A stretch of 61,297 nucleotides of DNA from a virus. Taxonomy: Duplodnaviria; Caudoviricetes. Location of the stretch: the IMG/VR virus record IMGVR_UViG_3300028802_000015, positions 1-61,297 of that record, one strand, 5' to 3'. The notes under the pieces are model-generated. The model was given only the letters and a program-made list of their open reading frames with translations, was not told the origin of the DNA and searched no databases. The position numbers were made by a program, and so were the translations under genes. Below, piece by piece: positions 199 through 60,789 of this stretch (positions are counted from its first letter, which is position 1; the number at the start of each line of letters is the position of its first letter).

Positions 199-211
199 TT
201 TAGTTACTAAA
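199..211. promoter_or_regulatory. 13-bp palindrome TTTAGTTACTAAA (copy 1), centre of a perfect 35-bp inverted repeat at 188-222
   Basis: Read directly; intergenic, upstream of ORF 265. Confidence 0.9.
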
Positions 212-264
212 CGGCGCGGTCCACGAGTCAACCGGCTCACTTCCCAGCAGAGAGGGTCATCCCC

Positions 265-525
265 ATGACCACCTACATCAGTGCCGTGCTGGCCCCGTCC
301 CGGGCCAACGCGGCGATCACCACCAAGGCCGCGCTCAAGGCGGCGATCAAGGCGGACCCGAACAGCGTCGAGTTCATCTCGACCTCGGCGATGCACCGCA
401 ACGGCAGCCACTTCACCCTCGGCGAGGCGGTCACCGCGTTCGGCCCGCGGGTCGGCATCGAGTTGCGGCTCGGCCGGAACGTGTTCATGGTCGAGGCCGA
501 CGCCCGGTCGGCGGTCGTCCGATGA
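265..525 (+). CDS. Hypothetical protein
   Basis: ATG with purine-rich RBS, GC3-rich codons. Confidence 0.8.
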   Translation: MTTYISAVLAPSRANAAITTKAALKAAIKADPNSVEFISTSAMHRNGSHFTLGEAVTAFGPRVGIELRLGRNVFMVEADARSAVVR

Positions 526-713
526 GCGGGCAGTACGGGCCCGAGCAGATCGCCGGGTGCTACGGGGTCACGGTCAACGACCCGTGCCCCGAGGTCAAGA
601 TCGAGTTCCCCGACTGGGCTCCGCTGGTCGGCGCGCTCACCGTGGCCGGTCGCACCGACCGGGTGACCGGTCGTCCGGCCACCGTGTTCACCCCGCCCGA
701 GGACCTTCGGTGA
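522..713 (+). CDS. Hypothetical protein
   Basis: ATGA overlap with previous gene. Confidence 0.65.
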   Translation: MSGQYGPEQIAGCYGVTVNDPCPEVKIEFPDWAPLVGALTVAGRTDRVTGRPATVFTPPEDLR

Positions 714-976
714 CCGAGGTCCGGCAGGTGGTCAGCCTGCCCCCGTCCACCGTCACCAAGGCGGAGCGGCTGACCCATGAGCAGCGGCGGGCCCGCATCT
801 CCGCTGGGATGCGACGGGCCCACGCCGAGCGAGGTAACCGGGTCAACGGCCCGGTCACCTCGAACGTCATCGAGCAGGAGGTGTGGCACACCGCGCTCCG
901 GCTCGCGCACGGCATCCTCACCCGCATCGAGCGGGTCAGCCCGACCGAGGTCATCGTCCACAACAACCCGCGCTGA
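710..976 (+). CDS. Hypothetical protein
   Basis: GTGA overlap; 3' part of track ORF 281..976. Confidence 0.7.
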   Translation: MTEVRQVVSLPPSTVTKAERLTHEQRRARISAGMRRAHAERGNRVNGPVTSNVIEQEVWHTALRLAHGILTRIERVSPTEVIVHNNPR

Positions 977-1003
977 TCCCGGCGTAACGGCAGCCCGCCC
1001 CGC

Positions 1004-1016
1004 TTTAGTCACTAAA
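1004..1016. promoter_or_regulatory. 13-bp palindrome TTTAGTCACTAAA (copy 2), inside a GC stem at 991-1030
   Basis: Read directly. Confidence 0.9.
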
Positions 1017-1074
1017 CGCGGGGCGGGCTGACGAGTCGCCCGGCTCACTCCACTTCCCAACCAGGAGGCATCCC

Positions 1075-1470
1075 ATGACACACCTCATCCACTCCGGCGA
1101 GGCACCGGCCGTCGGCCTGCGCGTCATCGACTACGACCGCGACCAGGGCACCATCGTCAAGGTCAGCGACCGCGGTCCGTGCGGCCCGCACTGCAACGCG
1201 TGGCACACCGTGCGCAAGGACAACGGCGCGACCGCCCTGTTCAACTGCACCCGGCTGACCACCGTCGGTGTCGTCGCCCGCCCGACCATCGTGGTCCTCA
1301 CCTTCGACCCGCGGGAGGACTGCGGCGTCGAGGTCATCGGCCCGTTCGAGAACGAGGACAAGGCGATGGCCTGGGTGGACCGGGCCCAGCCGACCCTGCC
1401 CAACGTCATCGACTTCTCGATCGAGACGATGACCCAGCCGTTCATCCCCGACTGGTCGGTGACGGCGTGA
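1075..1470 (+). CDS. Hypothetical protein
   Basis: AGGAGG RBS, ATG start. Confidence 0.8.
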   Translation: MTHLIHSGEAPAVGLRVIDYDRDQGTIVKVSDRGPCGPHCNAWHTVRKDNGATALFNCTRLTTVGVVARPTIVVLTFDPREDCGVEVIGPFENEDKAMAWVDRAQPTLPNVIDFSIETMTQPFIPDWSVTA

Positions 1471-1631
1471 CCCGACCCACCCTGGCCGACGAGACGCTGC
1501 TCCTGCTGCTCACCTGGGCGGTGCTCACCGCCGACCACCCCTCTCAGATCGTCATCGAGTCGTGGCCGGAGCCGTCGGTCCCGCTCGCTATCACCGTGCT
1601 GAACCAACCGGCGAACCCGTCGCCGGTTTAG
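1467..1631 (+). CDS. Small hypothetical protein
   Basis: GTGA overlap; its TAG stop lies inside palindrome copy 3. Confidence 0.5.
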   Translation: MTRPTLADETLLLLLTWAVLTADHPSQIVIESWPEPSVPLAITVLNQPANPSPV

Positions 1632-1639
1632 TGACTAAA
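1627..1639. promoter_or_regulatory. 13-bp palindrome TTTAGTGACTAAA (copy 3)
   Basis: Read directly; directly before RBS AGGAGCAGCC-ATG. Confidence 0.9.
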
Positions 1640-1652
1640 CCTAGGAGCAGCC

Positions 1653-2123
1653 ATGCCTCCCGCAACCCGCAAGACCGCCGCTCCCCGGCGGGCCACGAAG
1701 AAGGCGGTGACCGCGGCCGAGTCGCCCCGGCGCACCGCGAAGAAGGCGACCCCCGCACGGGCCGCGGTTGACCGGTTCCCCTGGGACGCGGACTCGTTCC
1801 CCGACCAGGCCGCGGCTGAGGCTGCGCTGGTCGCGCTCAAGGCGGCGGTGGTCCGCAAGGTCAACGTGCTGACCGAGCGGCACGGGTGGTGCGACGAGGC
1901 GGTCCGGGCCATGCAGGAGATGCGGCTCATCAGGCCGCCGCAGCCGGTGACCATGACCATCGAGGTCGAGGTCAACCAGGCCGCGTTCCGGTCGATGGGG
2001 TGGAGCACCCGGTCTGACGCCGACGTGCGGCGGCGGCTCACCGACGACCCGGTGGCGGCGGCACGGTACGGGCGGATCAAGTCCACCCGGTTCGCTGACC
2101 CCACCCCGCCGGACGCCGCATGA
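1653..2123 (+). CDS. Hypothetical protein with a basic, histone-like (K/R/A/P/T) N-terminus
   Basis: AGGAG RBS; RKTAAPRRATKKA..RTAKKATPARA. Confidence 0.8.
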   Translation: MPPATRKTAAPRRATKKAVTAAESPRRTAKKATPARAAVDRFPWDADSFPDQAAAEAALVALKAAVVRKVNVLTERHGWCDEAVRAMQEMRLIRPPQPVTMTIEVEVNQAAFRSMGWSTRSDADVRRRLTDDPVAAARYGRIKSTRFADPTPPDAA

Positions 2124-2287
2124 TCCGTCCGCTCACCGTGCTCCGTATCGCACGCGGCCTGCGCAGCGAACGGGGGGAGAACCCGGAGTACGACCGTGCC
2201 CTGGTCGAGATGACCGGGGACCTGCTCGGTATCGCCCACGATCTAGCCCGGGACCTGGTTCTCGGAGAAGGGACCATCAGCCAATGA
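2120..2287 (+). CDS. Small hypothetical protein (55 aa, MIRPLTVLR...ENPEYDRALVE...)
   Basis: Translated by hand; ATGA overlaps at both ends. Confidence 0.65.
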   Translation: MIRPLTVLRIARGLRSERGENPEYDRALVEMTGDLLGIAHDLARDLVLGEGTISQ

Positions 2288-2709
2288 GTCGATCAGTCAC
2301 CATCAGGGACGCCGACCACGCGATCGCCCTGCTCGAAGCGCAGGTCAACGCGCTGGGTGCGGACTACGTGTACCCGCCCAGCGTGTCGGGCACCGGCACC
2401 TGCCGGTACTTCGACCAGGCAGCGGAGGAGTGCGACCCGGACGGCAGGCCGCTGCTCAAGGCGGGGTGCATCGTCGGCCACGTGCTCATCGCGCTCGGCT
2501 TCGAGCCGGACGTGGCGGGGTACTCGGGCGACCCGATCGAGGACAACAACGCTTCGGGGCTGGTCGATGACGGGACCATCATGGCCCCGGCGATCGTCGG
2601 CCACATCCTGACCGCGGCGCAGACCGCGCAGGATGCGGGCCAGACCTGGGGTGACGCGCTCACCACGGCTCGTCAGGCCCGCCTGGACTGGGAGGCGGAG
2701 GATGCCTAG
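2284..2709 (+). CDS. Hypothetical protein
   Basis: Coupled ORF with coding-like codon usage. Confidence 0.8.
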   Translation: MSRSVTIRDADHAIALLEAQVNALGADYVYPPSVSGTGTCRYFDQAAEECDPDGRPLLKAGCIVGHVLIALGFEPDVAGYSGDPIEDNNASGLVDDGTIMAPAIVGHILTAAQTAQDAGQTWGDALTTARQARLDWEAEDA

Positions 2710-3106
2710 GTATCGCTACCTGTCGGACGCGCTGAACGAGGTACTGCGCGAGCGGGCTTTAGTCACTAAACCGGGGACCGCTCAGCCGACGCCGATCTTC
2801 CAGCGGGTGATGGGCAGGCGGGGTCCGGTCCGGTTCCCGCATGACTTCACCGGCTGGTCGAAGCCGATGCTGCGCGGGTACATCGACCACTGGCACCCGG
2901 CCCGGCCGGACACGTCCCGCTTCAACAAGCGGTCGCTGACCCGGCTGGCCGAGCAGGTGCGGGACTGGCAGGGGTTCGACTCGGAGTACCCGTCGGACGA
3001 GGACCTGATCGTCCCGTTCCAGATGTGGAAGTTGGAGCACCGGTTCACCGGTGCCCGGCTCCTCAAGAACTCGCTCGACTCGGTGAATGGGGATGCCGAG
3101 GAGTGA
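2702..3106 (+). CDS. Hypothetical protein; contains palindrome copy 4 in frame as LVTK
   Basis: GGAGG RBS then ATG at 2702. Confidence 0.7.
   Translation: MPRYRYLSDALNEVLRERALVTKPGTAQPTPIFQRVMGRRGPVRFPHDFTGWSKPMLRGYIDHWHPARPDTSRFNKRSLTRLAEQVRDWQGFDSEYPSDEDLIVPFQMWKLEHRFTGARLLKNSLDSVNGDAEE
2758..2770. promoter_or_regulatory. 13-bp palindrome TTTAGTCACTAAA (copy 4, intragenic)
   Basis: Read directly. Confidence 0.9.
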
Positions 3107-3248: not shown

Positions 3249-3261
3249 TTTAGTTACTAAA
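3249..3261. promoter_or_regulatory. 13-bp palindrome TTTAGTTACTAAA (copy 5)
   Basis: Read directly. Confidence 0.9.
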
Positions 3262-3592: not shown

Positions 3593-3840
3593 GCCGGACG
3601 CTGCGCGAGGTCATGGCCGACGACCTGGCCCATCGCCTTGAGTACCTGGGCGGGACGCTGGTCCCGCACGTCGAGGGTGGCTACGAGGCTGCCCTGTCCC
3701 CGCGGCTGAGGCTCCGGTTGCTCGCCAAGACCGGCGGGGTCAAGTCGATCAACCGGCTGACCGCGGATGAGATCGTCATCGGCACCGCCCTGACCCGCGC
3801 TATCCACTCGCTGTACCGACAGGAGGTTCGCGACCAGTGA
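3589..3840 (+). CDS. Hypothetical protein
   Basis: ATGA overlap. Confidence 0.7.
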   Translation: MSRTLREVMADDLAHRLEYLGGTLVPHVEGGYEAALSPRLRLRLLAKTGGVKSINRLTADEIVIGTALTRAIHSLYRQEVRDQ

Positions 3841-4106
3841 CACCCCCCGACCTGCCCGTTCCCCCGCCCGACTGGGCCCGGCTATGCCGGTGCTCCGGGC
3901 TGACCGAGGAGGAGGTGACCAGCGGCCACGGTGTGACCTGCTGGTGCGGTGCCTACGCCGACGAGGAGGACGCACTCTGCGAGAGGTGCCGCAACGGCTG
4001 CACCTTCACGGTCCTCACGCTGGACGAGGCACGGGAGCGCGCGGTACGCGACGCCGAGTGGATGCAGCAGGGGGCCAGTGGTTCAGTCAACGACCGTCTC
4101 GTTTAG
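3837..4106 (+). CDS. Cys-rich hypothetical protein
   Basis: CRC, CWC and CERC motifs; stop inside palindrome copy 6. Confidence 0.7.
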   Translation: MTPPDLPVPPPDWARLCRCSGLTEEEVTSGHGVTCWCGAYADEEDALCERCRNGCTFTVLTLDEARERAVRDAEWMQQGASGSVNDRLV

Positions 4107-4114
4107 TCACTAAA
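4102..4114. promoter_or_regulatory. 13-bp palindrome TTTAGTCACTAAA (copy 6)
   Basis: Read directly. Confidence 0.9.
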
Positions 4115-4816: not shown

Positions 4817-5151
4817 CCGCGCAACTGTGCGGCATCGGGTATCAGCGGCCGGATGGTTCGGTGGTGCGCTGCACCTACATCGCCGGGCACCCGGATGTGA
4901 TGGAGCGGTGTTCGTGGTTCGGGGTGAAGGCGCAGGACGAGGCTGACTCGGAGTCCGGCAACCACGACTACACGCCGCAGGTCATCCAAGCGCTGCTCGA
5001 CGCGATGCTGGCCGGTGACCTCGACCCGTACATCGAGGCGGTGCTGGCTGCTGGTCACACCCGGAAGCGTGCGCTGCGCGGGGAGCGTCACGAGTTCAGG
5101 ATCAACGTGGCGGGAGTTGACAACCCACCTCCCAGCCCTAAGTCAAGTTGA
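4813..5151 (+). CDS. Hypothetical protein
   Basis: ATGA overlap. Confidence 0.7.
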   Translation: MTAQLCGIGYQRPDGSVVRCTYIAGHPDVMERCSWFGVKAQDEADSESGNHDYTPQVIQALLDAMLAGDLDPYIEAVLAAGHTRKRALRGERHEFRINVAGVDNPPPSPKSS

Positions 5152-5176
5152 CACACAAGGTCAACTCTGGAAGAAT
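5146..5176 (+). promoter_or_regulatory. Putative sigma70-type promoter (TTGACA 5148-5153, AAGAAT 5171-5176) overlapped by inverted repeat GTTGAC-N7-GTCAAC
   Basis: Perfect -35 with 17-nt spacer; same inverted repeat at 59388 and 60671. Confidence 0.6.
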
Positions 5177-5223: not shown

Positions 5224-5236
5224 TTTAGTAACTAAA
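5224..5236. promoter_or_regulatory. 13-bp palindrome TTTAGTAACTAAA (copy 7)
   Basis: Read directly; follows a hairpin at about 5184-5219. Confidence 0.9.
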
Positions 5237-6139: not shown

Positions 6140-6152
6140 TTTAGTGACTAAA
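6140..6152. promoter_or_regulatory. 13-bp palindrome TTTAGTGACTAAA (copy 8)
   Basis: Read directly. Confidence 0.9.
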
Positions 6153-7437: not shown

Positions 7438-7745
7438 CCGCCGAGCAGCACCAGGCGGGCCCGCCGGTCACGTCCCTGGATCAGGTGCTCAACCAGTTCC
7501 AGGGTGTGCCGGACGGCTTGAAGCAGGCGCTCATGGACCGCGAGGACAACATCGCGGACATGCTGCGGCTGGCCGGTGCGCAGTACGGGACGTTCCCGCA
7601 GATCGTGGCGGAGGTGCTGTGCCAGGTGGGACTCGGCACGCCACCTACGACCGAGGAAAGGGCCATGATCCACAACCAGTTCCACGCCGTGATCGAGGAG
7701 TTGCGGCGGCAGTTCGGGGTCGGCGACGACCCGACCAACCTTTAG
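7434..7745 (+). CDS. Hypothetical protein
   Basis: ATGA overlap; stop inside palindrome copy 9. Confidence 0.75.
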   Translation: MTAEQHQAGPPVTSLDQVLNQFQGVPDGLKQALMDREDNIADMLRLAGAQYGTFPQIVAEVLCQVGLGTPPTTEERAMIHNQFHAVIEELRRQFGVGDDPTNL

Positions 7746-7753
7746 TCACTAAA
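7741..7753. promoter_or_regulatory. 13-bp palindrome TTTAGTCACTAAA (copy 9)
   Basis: Read directly. Confidence 0.9.
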
Positions 7754-8749: not shown

Positions 8750-8762
8750 TTTAGTAACTAAA
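8750..8762. promoter_or_regulatory. 13-bp palindrome TTTAGTAACTAAA (copy 10)
   Basis: Read directly. Confidence 0.9.
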
Positions 8763-8842: not shown

Positions 8843-9172
8843 ATGAGCACCATCCGCGAGACCGTCAGCGAGCAGATGCGGGGCAGTCGGCTGTCCTCCT
8901 ACGTGCGGGAGGCAGAGCCGGTCATCTCCGCGCTGGAAGCGCGGGAGTGGGACATGGCCGACGCGCTGATCGAGGCGGGGACCCGGCTGGGTGCCAGCCG
9001 CACCCAGGTGACCGGGGTCCTGGTGGACGCCGGGGTCCAGACCCGGCCCGCGCCGGTGTCCGTCCAGAGCAACGGCGGCAGCAACGACCTGTTCGCCCAG
9101 ATCGACGCGCTGCGGGACTCGGTGAACCAGATCAACCAGGCGCTCGACACGATCGTGCGTCAGTCCCGCTAG
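8843..9172 (+). CDS. Hypothetical protein with C-terminal coiled coil
   Basis: GATCGGAGCAAC RBS. Confidence 0.8.
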   Translation: MSTIRETVSEQMRGSRLSSYVREAEPVISALEAREWDMADALIEAGTRLGASRTQVTGVLVDAGVQTRPAPVSVQSNGGSNDLFAQIDALRDSVNQINQALDTIVRQSR

Positions 9173-9284: not shown

Positions 9285-9551
9285 ATGGAACACACCACGA
9301 AACTGCTGCTGGCGCTCGGGATCACCGAGTGGTCCAGCGTTTCTGCGCATATGGAAGCCATGCGCAAGGGCGGCATCTCCATCCCGACCGACGTGTTTGT
9401 GAACGTGGCTCGGGAGACTGGCTTCCTCATCCGGCAGTGGCCCATCGAGCATGGGCAGACGCCTGAGGGTGTGGTCGCTGAGGCCCGCCGGTATGTGACG
9501 GCGCACCTGGATGAAGCGGAGGCGCTGCTCGGTCAGGTGGCGACGGTATGA
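9285..9551 (+). CDS. Hypothetical protein
   Basis: AGGAGG RBS then ATG at 9285. Confidence 0.75.
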   Translation: MEHTTKLLLALGITEWSSVSAHMEAMRKGGISIPTDVFVNVARETGFLIRQWPIEHGQTPEGVVAEARRYVTAHLDEAEALLGQVATV

Positions 9552-9874
9552 CCAAGCGGAAGGGGGACGAGCCGGTCAGTGAGATCGCTTGGGAGGACCC
9601 ACCGCCCAAGCGCACCACGTATGACTGGCCCGCTATCGCTGACAAGTTGCGGGCGAACCCGATGGAGTGGGCGCTGATCTTCCGCAACGACCGCACGTCT
9701 GTGGTCAATGCGATGAGGCAGGGGGCGATCGGTCCGCTGCACCGGGACCTGGGGTTCGAGTACCGCACGGCGAACAACATCCGTGAGCCGGAGCGGCGGT
9801 GCGATCTGTACGTCCGGTGGAACCCGGAGAAGGTGAAGCCTCTGCGTGAGGCGATCCGTGAGGCGAAGCAGTGA
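9548..9874 (+). CDS. Hypothetical protein
   Basis: ATGA overlap; WEDPPP..YDWPAIADKLRANPMEWA. Confidence 0.8.
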   Translation: MTKRKGDEPVSEIAWEDPPPKRTTYDWPAIADKLRANPMEWALIFRNDRTSVVNAMRQGAIGPLHRDLGFEYRTANNIREPERRCDLYVRWNPEKVKPLREAIREAKQ

Positions 9875-10622: not shown

Positions 10623-10635
10623 TTTAGTAACTAAA
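10623..10635. promoter_or_regulatory. 13-bp palindrome TTTAGTAACTAAA (copy 11)
   Basis: Read directly; TTGACA at 10565 upstream. Confidence 0.9.
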
Positions 10636-11502: not shown

Positions 11503-11515
11503 TTTAGTCACTAAA
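11503..11515. promoter_or_regulatory. 13-bp palindrome TTTAGTCACTAAA (copy 12)
   Basis: Read directly; immediately upstream of primase-helicase. Confidence 0.9.
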
Positions 11516-11523: not shown

Positions 11524-13083
11524 ATGCAGAGGATGGATTCTTATGAGCGGGTGCTCGGTCTGCTGGAACGGATCACGGGAAACGGATCTTCGGTTCGCGC
11601 TTCCTGTCCCGTTCCGAGTCACGGCCAAGGCCGCGGCGACCGGAACCCCTCGTTGTCCGTCACGCACTCCGACGGCAAGACGCTGCTGAACTGCATGAAC
11701 GGGTGCCACCCGCAGGACGTGCTCATGGCGCTCGGGCTCGAATGGCCGGACCTGTTCGATGAGCCGATCACGAACGAGCGCGGCGTGAAGGTCGCCGAGT
11801 GGAAGTACCAGCGGCCCGACGGTGAGGTTCACTTCACGGTCGAGCGGTGGCAGAAGTCGGACGGCGGCAAGTCGTTCGTGCAACGGGTCCCCGGTCACGT
11901 CGGAGACGACGGTCGCCCCAAGGCCGGATACCCGAAGGGGTTCAAGCCGTGCCTCTACAACCTCCCCGCTGTTCTCGCTGCGGCCGGGGCGGGCGAGGAG
12001 GTGTGGATCGTGGAAGGTGAGAAGTCGGTCAGCGCAGCCCGGCACCTCGGGCTCACGGCCACCTGCTCACCGAACGGCGCGAAGGCATGGCGCGACTACT
12101 ACACGTCGTGGCTCAAAGGTGCGTCGGTCGTCAACATCGTGGCCGACAACGACACCGACGGGCAGCGGTACGCGGGCAGCGTCAGCGCATCGTGCCGGGC
12201 CGCTGGGCTCAAGACGAAGGTGTGGTCCACACCGGTCAAGCACAGCAAGGCTGACCTGTACGACCACGTGCTCGCCGGGCTCACGGTCACCGACCTGGTG
12301 CCGCTCGCGGTCAACCGGCTCCGACCTGCCGGGTCCACGATGAGCGGGCTGCTCAGCAAGGACTACCCGCCGGTGCGGTGGGCGGTGGACGGGCTGATCA
12401 GCGCCGGGCTGACCCTGTTCGGCGGGTCACCCAAGTTGGGCAAGTCCTACGTGGCGCTCGACCTGGGCCTCGGGGTGGCCTGCGGTGGGCTGGCACTGTC
12501 CACCCTGCACTGCCAGCAAGGCGACGTGCTGATGCTGGCGCTCGACAACGACACGGAGAGGAGAGTCAAGGAACGCTCGCTGTACCTGTTCGGGAACGTG
12601 ATGCCGGACTACGCGGTCCCGATGGAGGTGCACACCGAGTGGCCGGTCGGCGCGGACGCGTTGGCTGCCTGCCAGGAGTGGGTCGCGGACAGCGACAACC
12701 CGCGGATGATCGTGATCGACACGCTGGTCAAGGTCGAGCCGTACTTCGACGGCAACGGTGTGCAGAACTCGTACGCCGTGAGCAGCGAGGTGCTGTCCCG
12801 GTGGGCGAGGTTCGCGGCCGAGAGCAACATCGCGGTCGTCGCGATCCACCACGACCGGAAGCGGGGCAACGGCCAGGCCGAGGACGTGGACTGGCTCGAC
12901 AGGTTCACTGGGTCACGCGGCATCACCGCCGCGGCGCAGACCCTTCTGATGCTGGACGCCAAGAGAGGAGAGGACAAGGGAGTGCTGCGGGTGGCAGGCC
13001 GTGACATTGAGACTTCCGACTTGGAGATGACCCGGGTCGGTCGGTCATGGGCGGTGCTGTCGATGGTCCCGCAACCTGTTTAG
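11524..13083 (+). CDS. DNA primase/helicase (Zn-binding + TOPRIM + RecA-like ATPase)
   Basis: CPVPSH..CMNGC; VEGEK and ADND TOPRIM motifs; Walker A GSPKLGKS; Walker B IVIDT. Confidence 0.9.
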   Translation: MQRMDSYERVLGLLERITGNGSSVRASCPVPSHGQGRGDRNPSLSVTHSDGKTLLNCMNGCHPQDVLMALGLEWPDLFDEPITNERGVKVAEWKYQRPDGEVHFTVERWQKSDGGKSFVQRVPGHVGDDGRPKAGYPKGFKPCLYNLPAVLAAAGAGEEVWIVEGEKSVSAARHLGLTATCSPNGAKAWRDYYTSWLKGASVVNIVADNDTDGQRYAGSVSASCRAAGLKTKVWSTPVKHSKADLYDHVLAGLTVTDLVPLAVNRLRPAGSTMSGLLSKDYPPVRWAVDGLISAGLTLFGGSPKLGKSYVALDLGLGVACGGLALSTLHCQQGDVLMLALDNDTERRVKERSLYLFGNVMPDYAVPMEVHTEWPVGADALAACQEWVADSDNPRMIVIDTLVKVEPYFDGNGVQNSYAVSSEVLSRWARFAAESNIAVVAIHHDRKRGNGQAEDVDWLDRFTGSRGITAAAQTLLMLDAKRGEDKGVLRVAGRDIETSDLEMTRVGRSWAVLSMVPQPV

Positions 13084-13091
13084 TCACTAAA
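13079..13091. promoter_or_regulatory. 13-bp palindrome TTTAGTCACTAAA (copy 13)
   Basis: Read directly; supplies the primase TAG stop. Confidence 0.9.
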
Positions 13092-13754: not shown

Positions 13755-14065
13755 GCACGATCCCGCTCGCGTCACGCCGCGTCGTTCGTGACCGGTACGC
13801 CAAGCGCTGCGCCCACTGTGGGATGCCAGCGGGAGGTGGGCACTGGCACCACCGCAGGTCCCGGTCCGTGGTCGATGACCACACCCACTGCCCCTGCAAC
13901 GGGGTGTGGCTGTGCGGCACCTGCCACGCCTGGGCCCATGCTCAACCGAAGAAAGCGAGGGACGACGGGTTCGTCATCAGCAGGTACGTCGATCAACCGT
14001 TCACCATCCCGATCGTCACACCGTGGGGCCGCCGGTTCCACGACTGTCGGGGCGTCAGTCTTTAG
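13751..14065 (+). CDS. HNH endonuclease
   Basis: CAHC...HHRRSR...CNGVWLCGTCHAWAH. Confidence 0.85.
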   Translation: MSTIPLASRRVVRDRYAKRCAHCGMPAGGGHWHHRRSRSVVDDHTHCPCNGVWLCGTCHAWAHAQPKKARDDGFVISRYVDQPFTIPIVTPWGRRFHDCRGVSL

Positions 14066-14073
14066 TCACTAAA
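14061..14073. promoter_or_regulatory. 13-bp palindrome TTTAGTCACTAAA (copy 14)
   Basis: Read directly; supplies the HNH stop. Confidence 0.9.
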
Positions 14074-16383: not shown

Positions 16384-16396
16384 TTTAGTGACTAAA
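16384..16396. promoter_or_regulatory. 13-bp palindrome TTTAGTGACTAAA (copy 15)
   Basis: Read directly. Confidence 0.9.
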
Positions 16397-18440: not shown

Positions 18441-18625
18441 CCCGGTACTCACAGTGGTGCATCGAGGACCACGTGCTCTGCTGCCTGTGCTTCGGGTGCT
18501 TCCCGCTGACCGCACTGTGGCGCGACCCGGACGGGATGCTCACCGACGTGTGCGTGCCCTGCCAGACCAACGAGGCGTACGCGATGAACCGGCGCTACGA
18601 CAACCCGTCGCCCCAGCGCCACTGA
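18437..18625 (+). CDS. Small Cys-rich protein
   Basis: CCLC..CVPC; GTGA overlap. Confidence 0.65.
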   Translation: MTRYSQWCIEDHVLCCLCFGCFPLTALWRDPDGMLTDVCVPCQTNEAYAMNRRYDNPSPQRH

Positions 18626-18846
18626 CGGCCGGTCCGTTCGTTCTCCGCCCGGGTCCAGGCCATGACCCGCTTGTGGGAGTGCAGGCTCAGCGCCATAGCG
18701 GCGTCGAGCCTGCCCTCCTGCCGGGCCCGGAAGTAGGTCCGCTGCCACTCGGCGGCGAGTTCCTTGTCCACCTCGTCCCGCACACCGGAGAGCCACATCA
18801 GGCGCTCGATCGCGTCGCGCGGGGCGTCGGAGAAGTCGCATAGCAT
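18595..18846 (-). CDS. Hypothetical protein; lone reverse-strand gene in the plus arm
   Basis: 83-aa helical ORF filling the gap between plus-strand genes. Confidence 0.65.
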   Translation of the reverse strand: MLCDFSDAPRDAIERLMWLSGVRDEVDKELAAEWQRTYFRARQEGRLDAAMALSLHSHKRVMAWTRAENERTGRQWRWGDGLS

Positions 18847-18931
18847 GTTCGACAGCCTACCCCCAACTGGACTAGGATGGGCTATGAAAGGTGAGGCTGA
18901 GGTTTGTGTCCGACCCCCCAGGCACCCTCGG

Positions 18932-18944
18932 TTTAGTCACTAAA
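18932..18944. promoter_or_regulatory. 13-bp palindrome TTTAGTCACTAAA (copy 16)
   Basis: Read directly. Confidence 0.9.
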
Positions 18945-21961: not shown

Positions 21962-21974
21962 TTTAGTCACTAAA
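21962..21974. promoter_or_regulatory. 13-bp palindrome TTTAGTCACTAAA (copy 17)
   Basis: Read directly. Confidence 0.9.
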
Positions 21975-25848: not shown

Positions 25849-25861
25849 TTTAGTGACTAAA
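25849..25861. promoter_or_regulatory. 13-bp palindrome TTTAGTGACTAAA (copy 18)
   Basis: Read directly. Confidence 0.9.
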
Positions 25862-30504: not shown

Positions 30505-30517
30505 TTTAGTGACTAAA
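30505..30517. promoter_or_regulatory. 13-bp palindrome TTTAGTGACTAAA (copy 19)
   Basis: Read directly. Confidence 0.9.
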
Positions 30518-34940: not shown

Positions 34941-34953
34941 TTTAGTGACTAAA
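34941..34953. promoter_or_regulatory. 13-bp palindrome TTTAGTGACTAAA (copy 20)
   Basis: Read directly. Confidence 0.9.
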
Positions 34954-38274: not shown

Positions 38275-38287
38275 TTTAGTGACTAAA
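38275..38287. promoter_or_regulatory. 13-bp palindrome TTTAGTGACTAAA (copy 21)
   Basis: Read directly. Confidence 0.9.
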
Positions 38288-40198: not shown

Positions 40199-40211
40199 TT
40201 TAGTGACTAAA
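40199..40211. promoter_or_regulatory. 13-bp palindrome TTTAGTGACTAAA (copy 22), in hairpin 40191-40219 after the major tail gene
   Basis: Read directly. Confidence 0.9.
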
Positions 40212-43973: not shown

Positions 43974-43986
43974 TTTAGTAACTAAA
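43974..43986. promoter_or_regulatory. 13-bp palindrome TTTAGTAACTAAA (copy 23)
   Basis: Read directly; extends to GGATTTAGTAACTAAATCC. Confidence 0.9.
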
Positions 43987-43995
43987 TCCTTGCGC

Positions 43996-48876: not shown

Positions 48877-48917
48877 CTACCTCACCTGCCGTGAGCGAGC
48901 GCTTGAACGGGAGTGTG

Positions 48918-49253: not shown

Positions 49254-49267
49254 GGCTCCCTTGTCGG

Positions 49268-49280
49268 TTTAGTGACTAAA
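49268..49280. promoter_or_regulatory. 13-bp palindrome TTTAGTGACTAAA (copy 24)
   Basis: Read directly; supplies the terL stop. Confidence 0.9.
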
Positions 49281-51727: not shown

Positions 51728-51740
51728 TTTAGTGACTAAA
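51728..51740. promoter_or_regulatory. 13-bp palindrome TTTAGTGACTAAA (copy 25)
   Basis: Read directly. Confidence 0.9.
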
Positions 51741-52550: not shown

Positions 52551-53075
52551 CTATCGAGCGCAGGTGAGGATCGTCCGGTTGGTGTCCACTGGTTCTCGCT
52601 GGTGCACGCTCAGTTCTTGCAGAGTAAAGCCGGGCGGGCAGGTCGCTGCCGGACCTGCTGGGCCGGTGGCTCCGGTGGCTCCGGTGGCTCCTGTTGCCCC
52701 GGTCGCACCGGTCTGTCCGGTCACTCCCTGTGCACCGCGTGGGCCGCGCCTGCCCCTGGGTCCGCGAGGCCCCTCCGCGCCTGTCGCACCTGTCGCTCCG
52801 GTCGGGCCGGTGGCACCCTGAGGGCCGGTGGCACCCACACCCCCCCTGACGGTGGCACCGGTAAGGCCGGTCGGTCCCTGTCCCCCCTGCGGACCGGCCG
52901 GTCCCCGTTCCCCCACCGGGCCTGCTGGTCCTGTCGGCCCCGGTGGTCCGGTGGGCCCGGGTTTAGTGACTAAACGCGCCGCCTCGACCGGCTCCGGTTC
53001 TGGCACGGCGATGGCGATCGTGAACGAGGTGACGGTCAGCACTCCGGCGGCGGCGAAGCCGAGGACGGGGTTCAC
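52551..53075 (-). CDS. Membrane-anchored collagen-like protein; palindrome copy 26 in frame as LVTK
   Basis: N-terminal TM, Gly-X-Y run, C-terminal Cys pair. Confidence 0.75.
52962..52974. promoter_or_regulatory. 13-bp palindrome TTTAGTGACTAAA (copy 26, intragenic)
   Basis: Read directly. Confidence 0.9.
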
Positions 53076-54717: not shown

Positions 54718-54864
54718 TCAGTTGGGTACGTGGTCGTCGTCGGGCTTCGGCAGTATCCGGTTCAGTACCCATTCGGTGCCGGATGCCACCCGGCGGAACA
54801 AGAGCGGGTAGAGCAGGATGCTCAGCGAGCCGATGATCCACCACAGGATGTGTATGGAGCCCAT
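54718..54864 (-). CDS. Small single-TM protein
   Basis: MGSIHILWWIIGSLSILLYPLLF; TGATG overlap. Confidence 0.55.
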   Translation of the reverse strand: MGSIHILWWIIGSLSILLYPLLFRRVASGTEWVLNRILPKPDDDHVPN

Positions 54865-55448
54865 CACTTGCCGTCCCATCCGGCCATGCGCATCAGCAAC
54901 TCGAAGCGTTCCCGGTCGCCCACAGCCGCATCTGTCATCTTGAAGTACGCGCGTCGCACGTGCGGGGGGACCCTGACCACGATCATCGGCCACTGCGCGA
55001 AGTCGTCATAGTTGGTCGTCATCTCGGCGAGTTTCTTGATCTGCGCGAGATCGTGATCGGCGTACCCGGTGCCGTTCAGGGTGTCGGCTGCGGCGATCTT
55101 CTCCAGCAGCGGGAGCAGCAGCGCGTTGTCCGGTTCGGCTAGTGCGGCGGTGCGGTTGTCCGCGAGCAGGATGCGGGTCGCGGTCAGGTCGTCCACGTCG
55201 AGCATGACCACCGGGATCTCGGTGGCCCCGAGGGTCTTGCACGCTTCCCAGGTGTGGTTCCCGGCGATGATCCAGTTGGTCGCTTTCTGGACGAACACCG
55301 GCCGGTACATGCCATTGATCTCGATGCTCTCGATGATCTTGTCGAGATCCCCGTTGTTGTAGTTGTCGGGGTGCTGCTGCACGTCATCGATCGGCATGAG
55401 CAACTGGGTCAGGTCCTCGTGGAACTGGACCATCCCTGATGCGATCAT
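54864..55448 (-). CDS. ParB/Srx N-terminal domain protein
   Basis: HPDNYNNGD..ESIEINGMYRPV..IIAGNHTWEA..LADNRT. Confidence 0.85.
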   Translation of the reverse strand: MIASGMVQFHEDLTQLLMPIDDVQQHPDNYNNGDLDKIIESIEINGMYRPVFVQKATNWIIAGNHTWEACKTLGATEIPVVMLDVDDLTATRILLADNRTAALAEPDNALLLPLLEKIAAADTLNGTGYADHDLAQIKKLAEMTTNYDDFAQWPMIVVRVPPHVRRAYFKMTDAAVGDRERFELLMRMAGWDGK

Positions 55449-55507: not shown

Positions 55508-55520
55508 TTTAGTGACTAAA
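55508..55520. promoter_or_regulatory. 13-bp palindrome TTTAGTGACTAAA (copy 27)
   Basis: Read directly; supplies stop of 55516..55722. Confidence 0.9.
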
Positions 55521-57650: not shown

Positions 57651-57659
57651 TCCCTCACC

Positions 57660-57923: not shown

Positions 57924-58097
57924 TCAGCCGAGGCCAGGGTTGGCGAGCATCTTCGTGAGGTGCTCGGCGACGACGGCGCAGCAGGGGGAGAAGTCCTCGG
58001 TGGTCTGCTGTCCTTCGATGAGCGCGGTGAGTTGGTCTACCTCCTCGGGGTCGAGGGTGACCATGAACTGGCCGTGGGCGTGCTCGGTGATCATCAT
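57924..58097 (-). CDS. Hypothetical protein
   Basis: GAGGAG RBS; ATGA overlap. Confidence 0.65.
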   Translation of the reverse strand: MMITEHAHGQFMVTLDPEEVDQLTALIEGQQTTEDFSPCCAVVAEHLTKMLANPGLG

Positions 58098-58438
58098 GGT
58101 GTCTCCTCGTTGGTCTGCTGGCTGGTCCACGGGAGGGTGAGCCCGTCGTCCTGGCGGCGGGGCACGAGGTGCAGGTGCAGGTGGTGCACGGTCTGGGTGG
58201 CGTACCGGCCTTTGGACGTGATCAGGTTCCACTCGCCGCCGATCTGGCGGGCGAACAGCGCGGCGGCGTGCGCGGCGTGGGCGGTGGTGGCGGGGTCGGT
58301 CGCGAAGTCGGGGATGTGGCGGTGCGGGATGACCATGATGTGGCCGAGGGTGACCGGGTTGATGGGTTCCAGCGCGTAGCAGTGGGGTCCGAGCGGGTTG
58401 CCTTCGGGGGGCATGGGGCAGAACGGGCAGTTGGTCAC
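58094..58438 (-). CDS. HIT-family nucleotide hydrolase
   Basis: CPFC; PINPVTLGHIMVIPHRH; ATQTVHHLHLHLVPR triad. Confidence 0.92.
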   Translation of the reverse strand: MTNCPFCPMPPEGNPLGPHCYALEPINPVTLGHIMVIPHRHIPDFATDPATTAHAAHAAALFARQIGGEWNLITSKGRYATQTVHHLHLHLVPRRQDDGLTLPWTSQQTNEETP

Positions 58439-58875
58439 CGTTCCCACGTCCGGCCGCACTCGCACCGGAACGCGATGATCTTGGTGCCGTTCTCGTAGCG
58501 GAACCCGGTCTCGGTGCCGACGCAGAGGTGCCGTGCGCCGGGCACGGTGGCCGCGAACCTGGTGTGGTGGGTGATCACCGGCTCGGTGGTGCCCGCGGGC
58601 GCGACGGCTGCGGAGATATCGCCCGCCCAGTGGGTGATATTTGGCTCGGGGGGCTTCTCGATGACCTTGGTGGGGCGGTGCCGGGCCAGCGCTGCCTTCC
58701 GGATCTTCGCGGTGGCCTCCTCCCGGGTGGTGAGCCAGTAGATCAGCGCCTCGCGGGCGACCTGGCTGCGGGTCATGCCTTGGGAGATGGCTTCGACGCG
58801 TTCGGTCTCGTCGGCGGTGAGCCGGGTGGAGTAGACGACGCGGCGGGCTCGTGGTCCGAGCGGTGGTCTCGACAT
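58435..58875 (-). CDS. Ribbon-helix-helix-like DNA-binding protein with C-terminal Zn ribbon
   Basis: MSRPPLG..VVYSTRLT..MTRSQVAREAL; CECG. Confidence 0.7.
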   Translation of the reverse strand: MSRPPLGPRARRVVYSTRLTADETERVEAISQGMTRSQVAREALIYWLTTREEATAKIRKAALARHRPTKVIEKPPEPNITHWAGDISAAVAPAGTTEPVITHHTRFAATVPGARHLCVGTETGFRYENGTKIIAFRCECGRTWER

Positions 58876-58949
58876 AGTTGTAGACACTAACCGTTTCTGT
58901 AGACGGAAACCAGGGGTTGTTGTCTACATCTACTGGGTTTCTGTCTACG

Positions 58950-58962
58950 TTTAGTGACTAAA
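58950..58962. promoter_or_regulatory. 13-bp palindrome TTTAGTGACTAAA (copy 28)
   Basis: Read directly; supplies stop of 58958..59167. Confidence 0.9.
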
Positions 58963-59167
58963 CGCCGGGGTCCGTAACCTCACCTGACCCACTTGCCTTC
59001 ATCTGGTCCAGAGCCGAGTGAGCCATGATCAGATTCCGCACCATAACCCCACGTGACACACCCCCGAACCGCCTCCGTACCGTATCCAAAACCCGGGCTT
59101 CGGCCACCGACAACCGCACCGTCAACACCACCGGCCTGCCCCCAGCCGTACTCAACGGCCTCCCCAT
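58958..59167 (-). CDS. Ribbon-helix-helix-like DNA-binding protein
   Basis: MGRP..VLTVRLSVAE..GVSRGVMVRNLI. Confidence 0.7.
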   Translation of the reverse strand: MGRPLSTAGGRPVVLTVRLSVAEARVLDTVRRRFGGVSRGVMVRNLIMAHSALDQMKASGSGEVTDPGV

Positions 59168-59357
59168 AACCACACCTGCCCTACCTCGACGGACCTCACC
59201 GCACCCTACCGTATACGGAACTCAGCGGAGCATAACCCCAGGTCAGGGCGGTATACGAAACTCTGCCCCAATGCCAGACACCCAACCGACCGGCTAGCGC
59301 TCCCTCCGGGGCCGCGGGCCGGGGACCGGGGGTGCCGGGGGTGTGATGCGTCTCACG

Positions 59358-59370
59358 TTTAGTTACTAAA
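59358..59370. promoter_or_regulatory. 13-bp palindrome TTTAGTTACTAAA (copy 29)
   Basis: Read directly; in the divergent control region. Confidence 0.9.
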
Positions 59371-59387
59371 CGCGGGGCCTAGGTCAA

Positions 59388-59406
59388 GTTGACACAGCGG
59401 GTCAAC
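59388..59406 (+). promoter_or_regulatory. GTTGAC-N7-GTCAAC inverted repeat overlapping a TTGACA -35
   Basis: Same motif at 5147 and 60671. Confidence 0.65.
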
Positions 59407-59486
59407 CCGTGAGAGAGTGCTCTCAGTGGCCGAGAGAGACTCGGTCACACGGACAGGGGCTAGGGCCCCGGAGAGCAAGGTTCGAG

Positions 59487-60188
59487 ATGACTGAGTACGT
59501 CAAGATCACGGATGACAAGGCGGCTGTTGCGCTGGTCACGCGGGTGGCCCGGACCTACCGTTCGGCGCAGGGTAAGGTGCGTTCGCTGACCGCGGATGCC
59601 GCCTACGCGACCGAGGCTGCGTTCTCGGCGGGCATCATCGCCAAGGGCGCAAAGTACGACACGGCCCGTGAGTACGCCGCAGCGTTCGACGTGGCCCCGG
59701 CGACCGTGACCCTCTGGAAGCGTCTCGGTCGCGCGCTGGTCGTCGGCGTGACCACTGACTCCCCGCTGTGGCAGACGCTCGCGTTCCGCACCGCAGCGAA
59801 CGACAAGGCGGTCGCGGAAGCGATCATGGCCGACGACGCGACGGTCGCCAAGATCGCCGCGGCTGTGGCGACCACCCGGAAGCCGGACGGGTCGCGCGCG
59901 ACCAAGGTCGGCGGGAACGACGGCAAGCCGAACGACGGCACGGACGCTCCCGCGACCGACCCGCTCGCGGGCATCACCGACCCGACCGAGCAGGCGATGA
60001 TCTTGGTCGGTCTGTTGAAGCGCGTGGTCGCGGACACGGACCGCGACGGGTGGGCGAAGGTCGAGTCCGCGCTGGGCGAGATCATCACCCGCGAGAACAC
60101 GGTCCGGGCGAAGGCGGCGAAGGTCGCCGCGGACAAGGCGGCGAAGGCGGCGAAGGTCGCGGCCCCGGCCGACAAGATCGCCTCCTAG
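59487..60188 (+). CDS. Putative HTH DNA-binding protein; first gene of the plus arm
   Basis: TAREYAAAFDVAPATVTLWKRLG HTH-like; Lys/Ala-rich tail. Confidence 0.7.
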   Translation: MTEYVKITDDKAAVALVTRVARTYRSAQGKVRSLTADAAYATEAAFSAGIIAKGAKYDTAREYAAAFDVAPATVTLWKRLGRALVVGVTTDSPLWQTLAFRTAANDKAVAEAIMADDATVAKIAAAVATTRKPDGSRATKVGGNDGKPNDGTDAPATDPLAGITDPTEQAMILVGLLKRVVADTDRDGWAKVESALGEIITRENTVRAKAAKVAADKAAKAAKVAAPADKIAS

Positions 60189-60310
60189 TACCACCGATGG
60201 TGGCCCGGCCCGCGACGTAGCGGGTCGGGCCACCGGCACGTCCGGCCCCGCCCGGTCGGTGCGCCTCCCACGGGTCACGCTTCGGGAGGCGCACTGTCCA
60301 GGCGCGACCG

Positions 60311-60323
60311 TTTAGTTACTAAA
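60311..60323. promoter_or_regulatory. 13-bp palindrome TTTAGTTACTAAA (copy 30)
   Basis: Read directly. Confidence 0.9.
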
Positions 60324-60380
60324 CGCGCTGACCCTGGCTGCCCGGCCGGGTCAATCAATCAACCGATCGGAGCAACCGCC

Positions 60381-60626
60381 GTGCCTCACCGTCGCTCAGT
60401 CAACCAGTCAACCGACGCGTGGCAGGACCTCGCCTCCCGCACCGTTCTCACCTGCCCGCACCCGGAGCCGGACGCGCTGATCGTCAGCCACCGCGGCTAC
60501 GTGGTCCGCCTCTGCGTCCCGTGCCTCACCCTCTACTGCGGTGGCAGCGAGGTGCGCGCGGGCCGGGACGACGGCCGGTACGCGTCGGTCAGCCAGGACG
60601 ACGGGGTGTGCCTGGACCTGTCCTGA
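60381..60626 (+). CDS. Hypothetical protein (CPH..CVPC)
   Basis: GATCGGAGCAACC RBS then GTG. Confidence 0.7.
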   Translation: MPHRRSVNQSTDAWQDLASRTVLTCPHPEPDALIVSHRGYVVRLCVPCLTLYCGGSEVRAGRDDGRYASVSQDDGVCLDLS

Positions 60627-60670
60627 CACACCATGCCCCACAACGGGGGTCGTCACCCACCGTTGACTCA

Positions 60671-60700
60671 GTTGACACACAGGGTCAACTAGGGTAAGAT
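60671..60700 (+). promoter_or_regulatory. Sigma70-type promoter TTGACA-17-TAAGAT overlapped by GTTGAC-N7-GTCAAC
   Basis: TTGACA 60672-60677, TAAGAT 60695-60700. Confidence 0.75.
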
Positions 60701-60776
60701 TGATCTTGTGAGTGGGAGTCTGCCCACTTTCAGCCGCACCCGCCACTTCCCGTCGGCGGTCACCCCATCCGGTCCG

Positions 60777-60789
60777 TTTAGTAACTAAA
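60777..60789. promoter_or_regulatory. 13-bp palindrome TTTAGTAACTAAA (copy 31)
   Basis: Read directly. Confidence 0.9.

Follow-up and report, generated by a model that had tools for sequence, protein, structure and literature searches.

The window analysed here, the complete IMG/VR virus record IMGVR_UViG_3300028802_000015 (61,297 bases, rated 100% complete), carries a genome-wide array of 31 exact copies of a short palindrome, TTTAGTNACTAAA, placed at gene junctions. Closer relatives of this phage keep the exact palindrome at syntenic junctions, and most of the more distant ones carry arrays built on other palindromes. As our best explanation, to which we give a little less than an even chance, we propose that a dimeric protein, encoded by the phage and evolving together with the copies, recognises them as double-stranded DNA and acts inside transcription units.

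The motif was absent from 100 dinucleotide-preserving shuffles of the window (mean 0.00, max 0), and a search allowing up to two mismatches returned the same 31 sites only. The array is therefore all-or-none, with no degenerate copies. Variation within the motif is limited to the central base. Counted by eye, 28 of the 31 copies are followed by C and 20 are preceded by G, making the motif effectively about 15 bp long; 20 copies read GTTTAGTnACTAAAC. The site is very AT-rich in a genome whose G+C fraction is 0.65-0.73. Copies are fairly evenly spread over the plus-strand (early) arm, which runs from about 59.4 kb through the record end to 22.6 kb, and the minus-strand arm, which runs from 59.2 kb down to 22.7 kb and whose structural genes are accompanied by 11 copies; the widest spacing is 5294 bases (43974 to 49268). 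On an independent gene map, built from codon-position G+C (GC3), 29 copies lie within or at the edge of intergenic gaps, and the remaining two (2758 and 52962) fall within open frames. Gaps of at least 12 nucleotides (nt) number 49, of which 29 hold a copy and 20 do not. The preliminary description of this DNA, made from its letters and open reading frames (ORFs), had listed the 31 starts, the single variable base, the AT-rich motif against a high-GC background, the 29 copies at gene boundaries and the coverage of both arms with no gap much over 5 kb, and it was borne out on all of these counts.

The same description held that many copies lie directly before a ribosome-binding site. This is true of about half: a Shine-Dalgarno (SD)-like tetramer lies within 12 nt on one side of 16 of the 31 copies (0.24 at random positions), and the rest have none so close. 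In long gaps the copy is usually nearer to the next start than to the preceding stop, and at four junctions (4102, 7741, 13079 and 14061) it supplies the stop codon of the upstream gene; read within a gene, the window motif leaves only one of three frames per strand free of stops. Moreover, a start-associated element, GGAGCARC, occurs at 22 sites against 6.3 expected. It is longer than an SD sequence requires and is nearly restricted to the early arm, mostly just after the motif (for example at 1644, 4119, 7757, 14077, 16400, 18958 and 21976), with 16 of the 22 sites on the plus strand of that arm and nine within 20 nt after a motif copy. Distant relatives keep this element as GGAGCAACC before ATG, and their palindromes again abut GGAGCAACC...ATG.

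IMG/VR was then scanned with the flank-extended motif. Single chance matches to AT-rich contigs made up most of the output; 14 loci of high G+C, on 11 contigs, stood out, of which 13 align to the window at 65-85% nucleotide identity. In these closer relatives the flanks have diverged but the motif remains exact at syntenic junctions, which argues that it is under selection. Locus L136 shares with the window, at the DNA level, only the lone reverse gene 18595-18846. An alignment of its 83-residue product (42 metagenomic relatives, none annotated) led to 20 further viral loci, which lack TTTAGTNACTAAA and have other over-represented palindromes instead; one of them, L148, has no array in its 13.7 kb. 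The primase-helicase, used as a search probe, returned no relatives. In all, 14 of 15 more distant relative contigs carry a palindrome array of their own, with up to 38 copies, and 13 of those motifs differ from that of the window (see the table). The fifteenth contig, G013 (L195-L196; 39 kb, 65% complete), has no palindrome array though all core early genes are present; it carries four to five copies of the non-palindromic ACGAAAGGCATCCC directly before ATG codons. No such array was found in the first 50 kb of Arthrobacter phage Tank.

Exactness is shared by these arrays. Near-miss copies are almost absent in many genomes: G002, G003 and G004 (38, 19 and 17 exact copies) contain no copy with one or two mismatches, and G006 (36 exact) and G010 (14 exact) contain none with one mismatch and a single one with two. 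Nearly every lineage retains dyad symmetry, which is what a twofold-symmetric binder would lead one to expect. Since the site is invariant within a genome, kept at orthologous junctions and replaced wholesale between lineages, a lineage-specific, co-evolving reader appears to be needed. The phage itself would have to encode it, because one host factor cannot explain thirteen other specificities, and the difference in motif between relatives likewise argues against a single host regulator as the origin of the motif.

We infer that the reader is most likely a DNA-binding protein, dimeric and symmetric, that is produced early in infection. It would recognise the palindromes as double-stranded DNA at gene junctions within the transcription units of both arms and, once bound, would modulate the passage or restart of transcription, whether as a roadblock, a silencer or a timing device. 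The functional picture would be that of a palindromic, stoperator-like or KorA/KorB-like global operator array in a phage with no sign of lysogeny. Nothing suggests that this phage is temperate, because no integrase was found and the clade marker, the 18595-18846 protein, has no prophage relatives (none in 185,579 bacterial and archaeal species genomes, one genome each). A Pfam scan of 60 window proteins, from which about one third of the called ORFs, mostly tail-region genes, were left out, returned no integrase, ParA or recognisable repressor; within that scope the earlier observation that no integrase or CI-type repressor could be recognised holds.

The best candidate for the reader is the putative product of 59487-60188. 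It consists of a helix-turn-helix (HTH)-like segment, an acidic and Gly-rich linker and a C-terminal helical part, and it has no Pfam or PHROG hit. Local iteration of a hidden Markov model found its family in 11 of 16 genomes, and sites lie within 700 nt on the flanks of the family gene in 10 of 10 genomes. In the family alignment, KRL occurs in the putative recognition helix of four members, each with TTxAG(T/G) as its half-site. A homodimer model built on an alignment made for this analysis scored 0.76 against 0.00 for the best control, with at least 69% of contacts agreeing between runs and a predicted local distance difference test (pLDDT) value of at least 79; 20 of 30 proteins solved as pairs attain this mark, compared with one of 23 solved as single chains. 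Structural neighbours in the Atlas include HTH_ParB-bearing clusters, all under the tool's bar. A dimer made up of helices from both ends of the protein, between which the HTH lies, and having a long linker could accommodate some variation in spacer.

Several observations weigh against this explanation. The sites are not functionally symmetric, because their centres are biased relative to transcription: on the coding strand the central base of the window motif is C in 16 copies and G in 2, and similar biases are seen in G002 (22 vs 7), G006 (CC 11 vs GG 3) and G012 (CAA 6 vs TTG 0), with none in G001 (16 vs 15). Three genomes use two spacer lengths between the same arms (3 and 4 in G008 and G010, 3 and 2 in G009), which is unusual for a rigid dimer. 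In G005, whose array derives from the window's motif, the commonest form is an oriented imperfect palindrome, TTTAGTnACCAAA; 18 copies read this way on the coding strand and 5 the opposite way. Among its 34 sites, TTTAGTCACCAAA, mostly with GA after it, is on the coding strand in 18 of the 23 oriented asymmetric copies; G005 seems to have turned the window palindrome into an oriented, asymmetric site that resembles stoperators in its orientation. Together, the loop bias, this oriented form and the two spacers argue against a rigid, perfectly symmetric DNA binder, and point to a strand-aware process, to flexibility in the reader, or to both. The proximity of about half of the copies to an SD sequence would also suit a role in RNA. 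As for the candidate protein, its family was not detected in 5 of 16 genomes, including the complete, array-bearing G004 and G012, and a member is present in G013, where 39 kb show no array. Pfam searches with 11 family members and a PDB profile search of the family gave nothing significant, so that the HTH call stands on sequence pattern alone, and whole-protein identity was only weakly related to motif similarity among 26 single-copy families (best r 0.34, for the terminase). Lastly, it is hard to see what a global silencer would do for a phage with no integrase among the 60 scanned proteins and no prophage kin of its marker gene in the 185,579 species genomes. The preliminary proposal of dimeric-protein sites acting genome-wide thus survives in part, as the leading hypothesis: the private palindromes of the relatives call for a phage-encoded reader, and the bias, the asymmetric form and the double spacing fit a rigid symmetric binder poorly.

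The reader may not be a single homologous family, because G004 and G012 carry other candidate ORFs instead. By eye, two small ribbon-helix-helix (RHH)-like ORFs were seen beside three motif copies at the equivalent genome position of G004 (L162 216-755), and a 348-residue ORF with an HTH-like stretch was seen in G012. Other window proteins were also considered, and the list of candidate binders in the preliminary description fared unevenly: 59487-60188 gained from its HTH-like segment, predicted homodimer and flanking sites, and 54864-55448 was rejected. The latter matches ParB_N only, has GNHT at the aligned position of the GERR arginine patch of CTP-binding ParB proteins and no clear HTH, lacks a homologue in G004 in spite of that genome's 17 sites, and has one in the array-less Tank. 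The 18595-18846 protein is predicted to form three helices (pLDDT 89.5, no fold match). It is unlikely to set specificity, because its basic C-terminal half, the putative DNA contact, hardly varies between lineages whose motifs differ, but a regulatory role may still apply. Neither it nor the product of 9548-9874 has a homologue in 50,697 phage records.

The strongest competitor, which we consider unlikely, places the function in RNA. A phage RNA-binding protein or endoribonuclease would clamp a weak stem-loop 5′ of the ribosome-binding site, and would either cut the polycistronic message or gate translation of the next gene. The position of copies in transcribed leaders, their proximity to SD-like elements and to the next start, the GGAGCARC element just after them and the bias of loop bases relative to the transcribed strand would all be consistent with this, as would the combination of constant arms with variable 2-4-nt centres within one genome, which resembles stems with loops. 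A possible reader is the secondary candidate, 9548-9874, whose predicted alpha/beta fold shows weak, indecisive likeness to winged-helix and to R3H, IF3-C and KhpB-type RNA-binding folds (best Z 4.9); these matches are in the range of common arrangements. The bare motif is an unstable RNA hairpin, with minimum free energies of -0.2 and 0 kcal/mol that 98 and 200 of 200 shuffles equal, and the dominant sense-strand form of G005 is broken by an A-C mismatch that leaves a G-T pair on the template strand. Both facts argue against a self-folding or sense-RNA hairpin. The strand on which wobble pairing is kept differs between genomes (template strand 18 to 5 in G005, the opposite 2 to 0 in G001, 6 to 4 in G014, no wobble in G012). 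Perfect extensions of at least 7 bp with the site at the apex were found at 5 of about 347 sites in 13 genomes. In the window only copies 199 and 1004 lie within strong hairpins, and neither has a T tract. The lone terminator-like site beside a copy is 59338-59354, whose T-rich tail comes from the first bases of copy 59358. An intrinsic terminator or unassisted RNA hairpin was thus rejected for typical sites, with a fold energy of about 0 kcal/mol. The two hairpin-borne copies belong to paralogous intergenic modules (186-250 and 989-1062), in each of which the motif caps a long GC-rich hairpin and a common ACGAGTCnnCCGGCTCACT segment follows; these could be terminator-plus-leader units or small RNAs.

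Improbable, in our judgement, is a role in genome organisation, replication or recombination, in which the copies would be loading or bridging sites, priming signals for the primase-helicase or recombination linkers, and would be intergenic only since coding DNA cannot hold them. The fairly even spread over the whole genome is consistent with this, and so is the clade's conserved core, a module for replication and recombination that comprises primase-helicase, single-stranded DNA-binding protein (SSB), Rad52-like, exonuclease-like and VRR-NUC proteins. A ParB_N-domain protein is also present, and the stop codons in most frames of the window motif make it hard to place in genes. However, stop-free motifs such as TCCTGTnnACAGGA in G006 still adjoin gene starts, placement favours the 5′ side of the next gene, and the bias relative to transcription needs a strand-aware process. 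The ParB_N protein is missing from the array-bearing G004, and the comparable repeats of Cluster O mycobacteriophages are described as not lying at rearrangement breakpoints (PMC4351075).

Rather more doubtful still is the possibility that the copies extrude as small DNA hairpins and act, in the manner of the early promoters of coliphage N4, as promoters for an unrecognised phage RNA polymerase, giving each gene block a phage-specific promoter. The window arms with their flanking G/C would form a 6-bp stem with a 3-base loop (N4 has a 5-7-bp stem and 3-base loop), the C at the loop centre of the coding strand corresponds to a template-strand G in the same 16 copies against 2, and in G005 it is the template strand that keeps pairing through G-T. 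Lineage-specific sequences are also a property of phage-polymerase promoters, and an SSB gene is present in the phage. The 60 scanned proteins yielded no RNA polymerase, however, several large or core proteins having no assignment, N4 geometry would start transcripts inside the SD sequence at the many sites where it follows by 1-4 nt, G001 has no loop bias, and the presence of copies in both early and late arms provides no temporal logic. Conventional promoters were also sought. Three sigma-70-like sites, all intergenic and sense-oriented, lie 48-77 nt upstream of copies 5224, 18932 and 60777, which would place these copies in transcribed leaders and not at promoters; their number is not significant (3 vs about 2.9 expected from shuffles) and their placement is at most suggestive. 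The scan found no such site in the 36-kb minus-strand arm, which would suit promoters of another kind. A sigma-70 promoter inside the motif was rejected, as the motif contains no TAnnnT hexamer.

That the copies are selfish or copy-pasted mini-palindromes of the repetitive extragenic palindromic (REP) type, made uniform by spreading or conversion and with little function of their own, is very improbable: the all-or-none exactness, with no near-misses in several genomes, is what homogenisation would give and REP families too differ between lineages, but copies are kept at syntenic junctions across relatives at 65-85% identity, no transposase-like or HUH-type protein was found among the scanned proteins, 13-16 bp is very short for a mobile unit, and placement relative to starts and stops is tightly constrained.

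The window phage itself is a siphovirus, distantly related to Arthrobacter and Microbacterium phages. The identity of its large terminase to the Arthrobacter, Microbacterium, Curtobacterium and Gordonia phage enzymes does not exceed about 47%, and no nucleotide match to the window was found among 50,697 phage records. The DNA sequencing runs that hold window sequence are soil and rhizosphere metagenomes, and no RNA run is among the 11 listed. The early arm encodes small ORFs, the primase-helicase, SSB, a Rad52-like protein, a VRR-NUC protein and a SLOG protein; the minus-strand arm encodes a HIT protein, the ParB_N-domain protein, an amidase lysin, the large terminase, a MuF-like 943-residue protein, capsid and tail genes and collagen-like proteins.

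Some further features were observed along the genome. The divergent control region contains two local repeat sets, namely four hexamers (GTAGAC/GTCTAC, 58878-58950) that form inverted pairs about the start of 58435-58887 and two copies of GTATACG(G/A)AACTC upstream of 58958-59173 (59205-59262); both look like classical local operators or iterons, separate from the global motif. Two collagen-like (Gly-X-Y) ORFs, 52551-53075 and 55962-57650, lie in the lysis- and head-proximal region, one with an in-frame motif copy near its 5′ end. The 943-residue protein (44267-47098) has both a MuF-like minor capsid domain and a 2H phosphoesterase (2′-5′ RNA ligase-like) domain, its C-terminal 600 residues have no assignment, and no PDB sequence match was found for it. 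A 419-residue core protein (6178-7437) occurs in 14 of 16 genomes, where identity is just 21-30%. Four repeated segments, each with LPxGT, and a conserved FKxxAW...WC...E block at the centre mark its sequence; searches of Pfam, PHROGs and PDB gave no match, and just two relatives turned up in the database. On either side of gene 7768-8709, in the conserved replication module, lie paralogous proteins of about 105 residues (7434-7745 and 8843-9172), with 25 members in 15 genomes. Finally, 16411-16860 encodes a SLOG-family (YAcAr) protein and 58094-58465 a HIT-family hydrolase; SLOG and HIT are nucleotide-handling folds, often tied to defence or counter-defence.

Table. Palindrome copies, promoter-like sites and candidate regulator genes of the window, and palindrome arrays of its distant relatives (numbers in brackets within motifs are spacer lengths; aa, amino acids).
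Feature	Position	Strand or arm	Central base or motif	Details
Copy	199..211		T	Apex of perfect 11-bp GC-rich extension; extended hairpin RNA -30.4 kcal/mol; 53 nt before ATG 265
Copy	1004..1016		C	Apex of long imperfect GC-rich hairpin, -35.1 kcal/mol; 58 nt before ATG 1075
Copy	1627..1639		G	SD directly after; 13 nt before ATG 1653
Copy	2758..2770		C	Inside open frame 2702-3106, in its sole stop-free frame
Copy	3249..3261		T	28 nt before ATG 3290
Copy	4102..4114		C	Its TAG is the stop of 3837-4106; SD after
Copy	5224..5236		A	48 nt past sigma-70-like site; 17 nt before ATG 5254
Copy	6140..6152		G	25 nt before GTG 6178
Copy	7741..7753		C	Holds stop of 7434-7745; 14 nt before ATG 7768
Copy	8750..8762		A	80 nt before ATG 8843
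Copy	10623..10635		A	20 nt before ATG 10656
Copy	11503..11515		C	8 nt before ATG 11524 (primase-helicase)
Copy	13079..13091		C	Holds stop of 11524-13083; then GGAGCAAC element
Copy	14061..14073		C	Holds stop of 13788-14072; 12 nt before ATG 14086
Copy	16384..16396		G	14 nt before ATG 16411
Copy	18932..18944		C	Divergent gap between 18595-18846(-) and Rad52-like gene; 54 nt past sigma-70-like site; 23 nt before GTG 18968
Copy	21962..21974		C	10 nt before GTG 21985
Copy	25849..25861	minus-strand arm	C (coding strand)	44 nt before start 25804
Copy	30505..30517	minus-strand arm	C (coding strand)	SD after; 14 nt before start 30490; kept in relatives L014, L016, L063
Copy	34941..34953	minus-strand arm	C (coding strand)	14 nt before start 34926; kept in L063
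Copy	38275..38287	minus-strand arm	C (coding strand)	76 nt before ATG 38198
Copy	40199..40211	minus-strand arm	C (coding strand)	30 nt before start 40168
Copy	43974..43986	minus-strand arm	T (coding strand)	426-nt gap before capsid-region gene 42200-43840/43906
Copy	49268..49280	minus-strand arm	C (coding strand)	Between large terminase gene and 48918-49253; 14 nt before ATG 49253; kept in L030
Copy	51728..51740	minus-strand arm	C (coding strand)	26 nt before start 51701; kept in L029
Copy	52962..52974	minus-strand arm	C (coding strand)	Inside or at start of collagen-like frame 52551-53075
Copy	55508..55520	minus-strand arm	C (coding strand)	59 nt before ATG 55448 (ParB_N-like gene)
Copy	58950..58962	minus-strand arm	C (coding strand)	Overlaps end of 58958-59173; 62 nt before start 58887
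Copy	59358..59370		T	313-nt divergent control gap; 116 nt before ATG 59487
Copy	60311..60323		T	57 nt before GTG 60381
Copy	60777..60789		A	77 nt past sigma-70-like site; 25 nt before ATG 60815
Sigma-70-like site	5148..5176	+		TTGACA, 17 nt, AAGAAT, with TG
Sigma-70-like site	18849..18878	+		TCGACA, 18 nt, TAGGAT
Sigma-70-like site	60672..60700	+		TTGACA, 17 nt, TAAGAT
Best candidate reader (putative)	59487..60188	+		233 aa; first gene of early arm, after 313-nt divergent control gap
Secondary candidate reader	9548..9874	+		Core 108-aa protein, alpha/beta fold
Lone reverse gene, clade marker	18595..18846	-		83 aa, in early arm; motif in its divergent promoter gap
ParB N-terminal-domain protein	54864..55448	-		194 aa; ParB_N only, E 3e-8
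71-aa ORF	58958..59173	-		Head of minus-strand arm; weak RHH_1 match, E 0.04, below cutoff
G001 array			GTTCACTnAGTGAAC	38 copies; 59.8 kb
G002 array			TTCAGTnACTGAA	38 copies, 35 as GTTCAGTnACTGAAC; 36 kb
G003 array			TTCAGAnTCTGAA	19 copies
G004 array			TTTATCnnGATAAA	17 copies; complete genome
G005 (L166-L169) array			window's motif	7 exact and 27 one-mismatch copies
G006 array			TCCTGTnnACAGGA	36 copies, 35 as GTCCTGTnnACAGGAC; 32.7 kb
G007 array			TTTACnnnGTAAA	23 copies
G008 array			TCAGT(3-4)ACTGA	21 + 5 copies
G009 array			TTAAGG(3 or 2)CCTTAA	12 + 4 copies
G010 array			TTGACC(3 or 4)GGTCAA	14 + 4 copies
G011 array			TTTAGGnnnnCCTAAA	22 copies
G012 array			TTAGG-3-CCTAA	14 copies; 31 with outer four pairs only; complete genome
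G014 array			ATYAGT(0-2)ACTRAT	19 copies
G015 array			GTTACCTAGGTAAC	3 copies; 17 kb

What these arrays offer, and the published cases lacked, is a comparative handle, in that relatives keep array architecture, placement and copy number while the sequence changes completely. A wider reading, which we regard as doubtful, is that this is a lytic soil-phage clade in which regulation uses a private address: each lineage would have one fast-evolving, early dimeric protein and 15-40 identical palindromes before gene blocks, with the specificity re-invented between lineages (14 motifs including the window's) to give a lineage-specific global switch. If so, the array could time or insulate every gene block, and only genomes with the same address would respond, which would allow kin to be told from competitors in co-infection and amount to the logic of immunity groups without lysogeny. 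Control of dozens of junctions by one small protein of re-settable specificity would provide a natural family of orthogonal operators and regulators, and a new view of transcription in lytic phages. Were the sites instead to act in RNA or as hairpin promoters, they would represent a new kind of phage gene punctuation.

Publications from 2011-2015 onwards describe genome-wide arrays of identical short repeats in non-temperate actinophages and give no mechanism for them. A literature search for the exact motif strings returned just two papers, which by title and abstract deal with other subjects. The closest described case is the 17-bp dyad array of the Cluster O mycobacteriophages, Corndog and its relatives, in which an invariant inverted repeat with a variable centre, TGTTCGGNNNCCGAACA, is present in 34 copies in Corndog and more than 30 per genome (PMC4351075; see also PMC6439249). 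As in the window, more than 30 invariant, variable-centre palindromes are spread genome-wide, many of them intergenic, in phages described as lacking an integrase and not obviously temperate. The authors predict a dimeric DNA-binding protein, report no function and judge a protein with a ParB-like domain to be unrelated (PMC4351075). The arms differ in sequence and length (7-3-7 in Cluster O, 6-1-6 in the window), and the window phage has neither TGTTCGGNNNCCGAACA nor Cluster O homology. In the published account about one third of the Cluster O copies lie in genes, without close linkage to translation starts and with no orientation bias seen (PMC4351075), whereas in the window 29 of 31 lie at junctions, half abut an SD sequence and an orientation bias is present. 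Moreover, Cluster O is described as one tight cluster with one motif, and the clade of the window has at least 13 others.

Cluster K mycobacteriophages offer the second parallel. Their start-associated sequence (SAS) is an SD-containing element just before starts, and about half of the copies are preceded by extended inverted repeats with a variable spacer (ESAS); the repeat consensus differs by subcluster, an upstream stop codon can fall in the element, and the paper gives little support for RNA hairpins (PMC3203893). A conserved SD-containing start-associated sequence, GGAGCARC in the window, and lineage-specific inverted repeats are thus common to both. ESAS arms are reported as 17 bp, imperfect and 4-13 bp apart, in contrast to exact arms of 5-7 bp set 0-4 bp apart in the clade of the window, and the SAS and ESAS are described as confined to the non-structural half, whereas window copies occupy both arms (PMC3203893). 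Cluster K phages are also temperate, with an integrase and attP (PMC3203893). Lineage-private addressing, if true, would also explain the Cluster O repeats and the Cluster K ESAS.

Stoperators of Cluster A and of Streptomyces R4-type phages, as described in citing papers, are tens of 13-bp-class sites in short intergenic regions of both arms at which one phage protein blocks RNA polymerase. Many copies of one short intergenic site within transcription units genome-wide, a bias relative to the direction of transcription and, probably, a polar mode of action are shared with the window, and the oriented form in G005 adds to the likeness. By these accounts stoperators are asymmetric and their repressor maintains lysogeny, whereas the window sites are perfect palindromes biased in the central base only, in a phage without the temperate hallmarks of stoperator systems (no integrase or partition system among the scanned proteins).

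Plasmid RK2 provides a replicon of similar size, about 60 kb, in which the dimeric global repressors KorB and KorA act at multiple palindromic operators, KorB being a CTP-dependent ParB clamp (PMC11790492). Oligonucleotides in that report hold TTTAGCGGCTAAA (OB) and GTTTAGCTAAAC (OA), with arms very similar to the GTTTAG...CTAAAC of the window; spacing is 6-0-6 in OA and 6-1-6, with another inner base, in OB (PMC11790492). This likeness is probably due to chance, because relatives of the window phage use unrelated arms. The ParB_N protein of the window is unlike KorB and ParB in having GNHT for GERR and in being dispensable for arrays, as G004 indicates.

The promoters of the N4 virion RNA polymerase are inverted repeats with the stem and loop sizes given above on the template strand, and need a purine at the loop centre, supercoiling and SSB (PMC4496689). 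Short inverted repeats that can form a stem and 3-base loop, with a strand-specific loop centre and a position upstream of genes, are common to both; N4 is described as having three such promoters and a virion polymerase of 3500 residues (PMC4496689), against 31 copies and no recognisable polymerase in the window. Taken together, these comparisons qualify the suggestion in the preliminary description that the system may be undescribed, which was only partly right: dyad arrays (Cluster O) and lineage-specific inverted repeats (Cluster K) are already known as a kind of feature, and what is new here is the clade-wide turnover of specificity, the tight placement at junctions and SD sequences, and the orientation bias.

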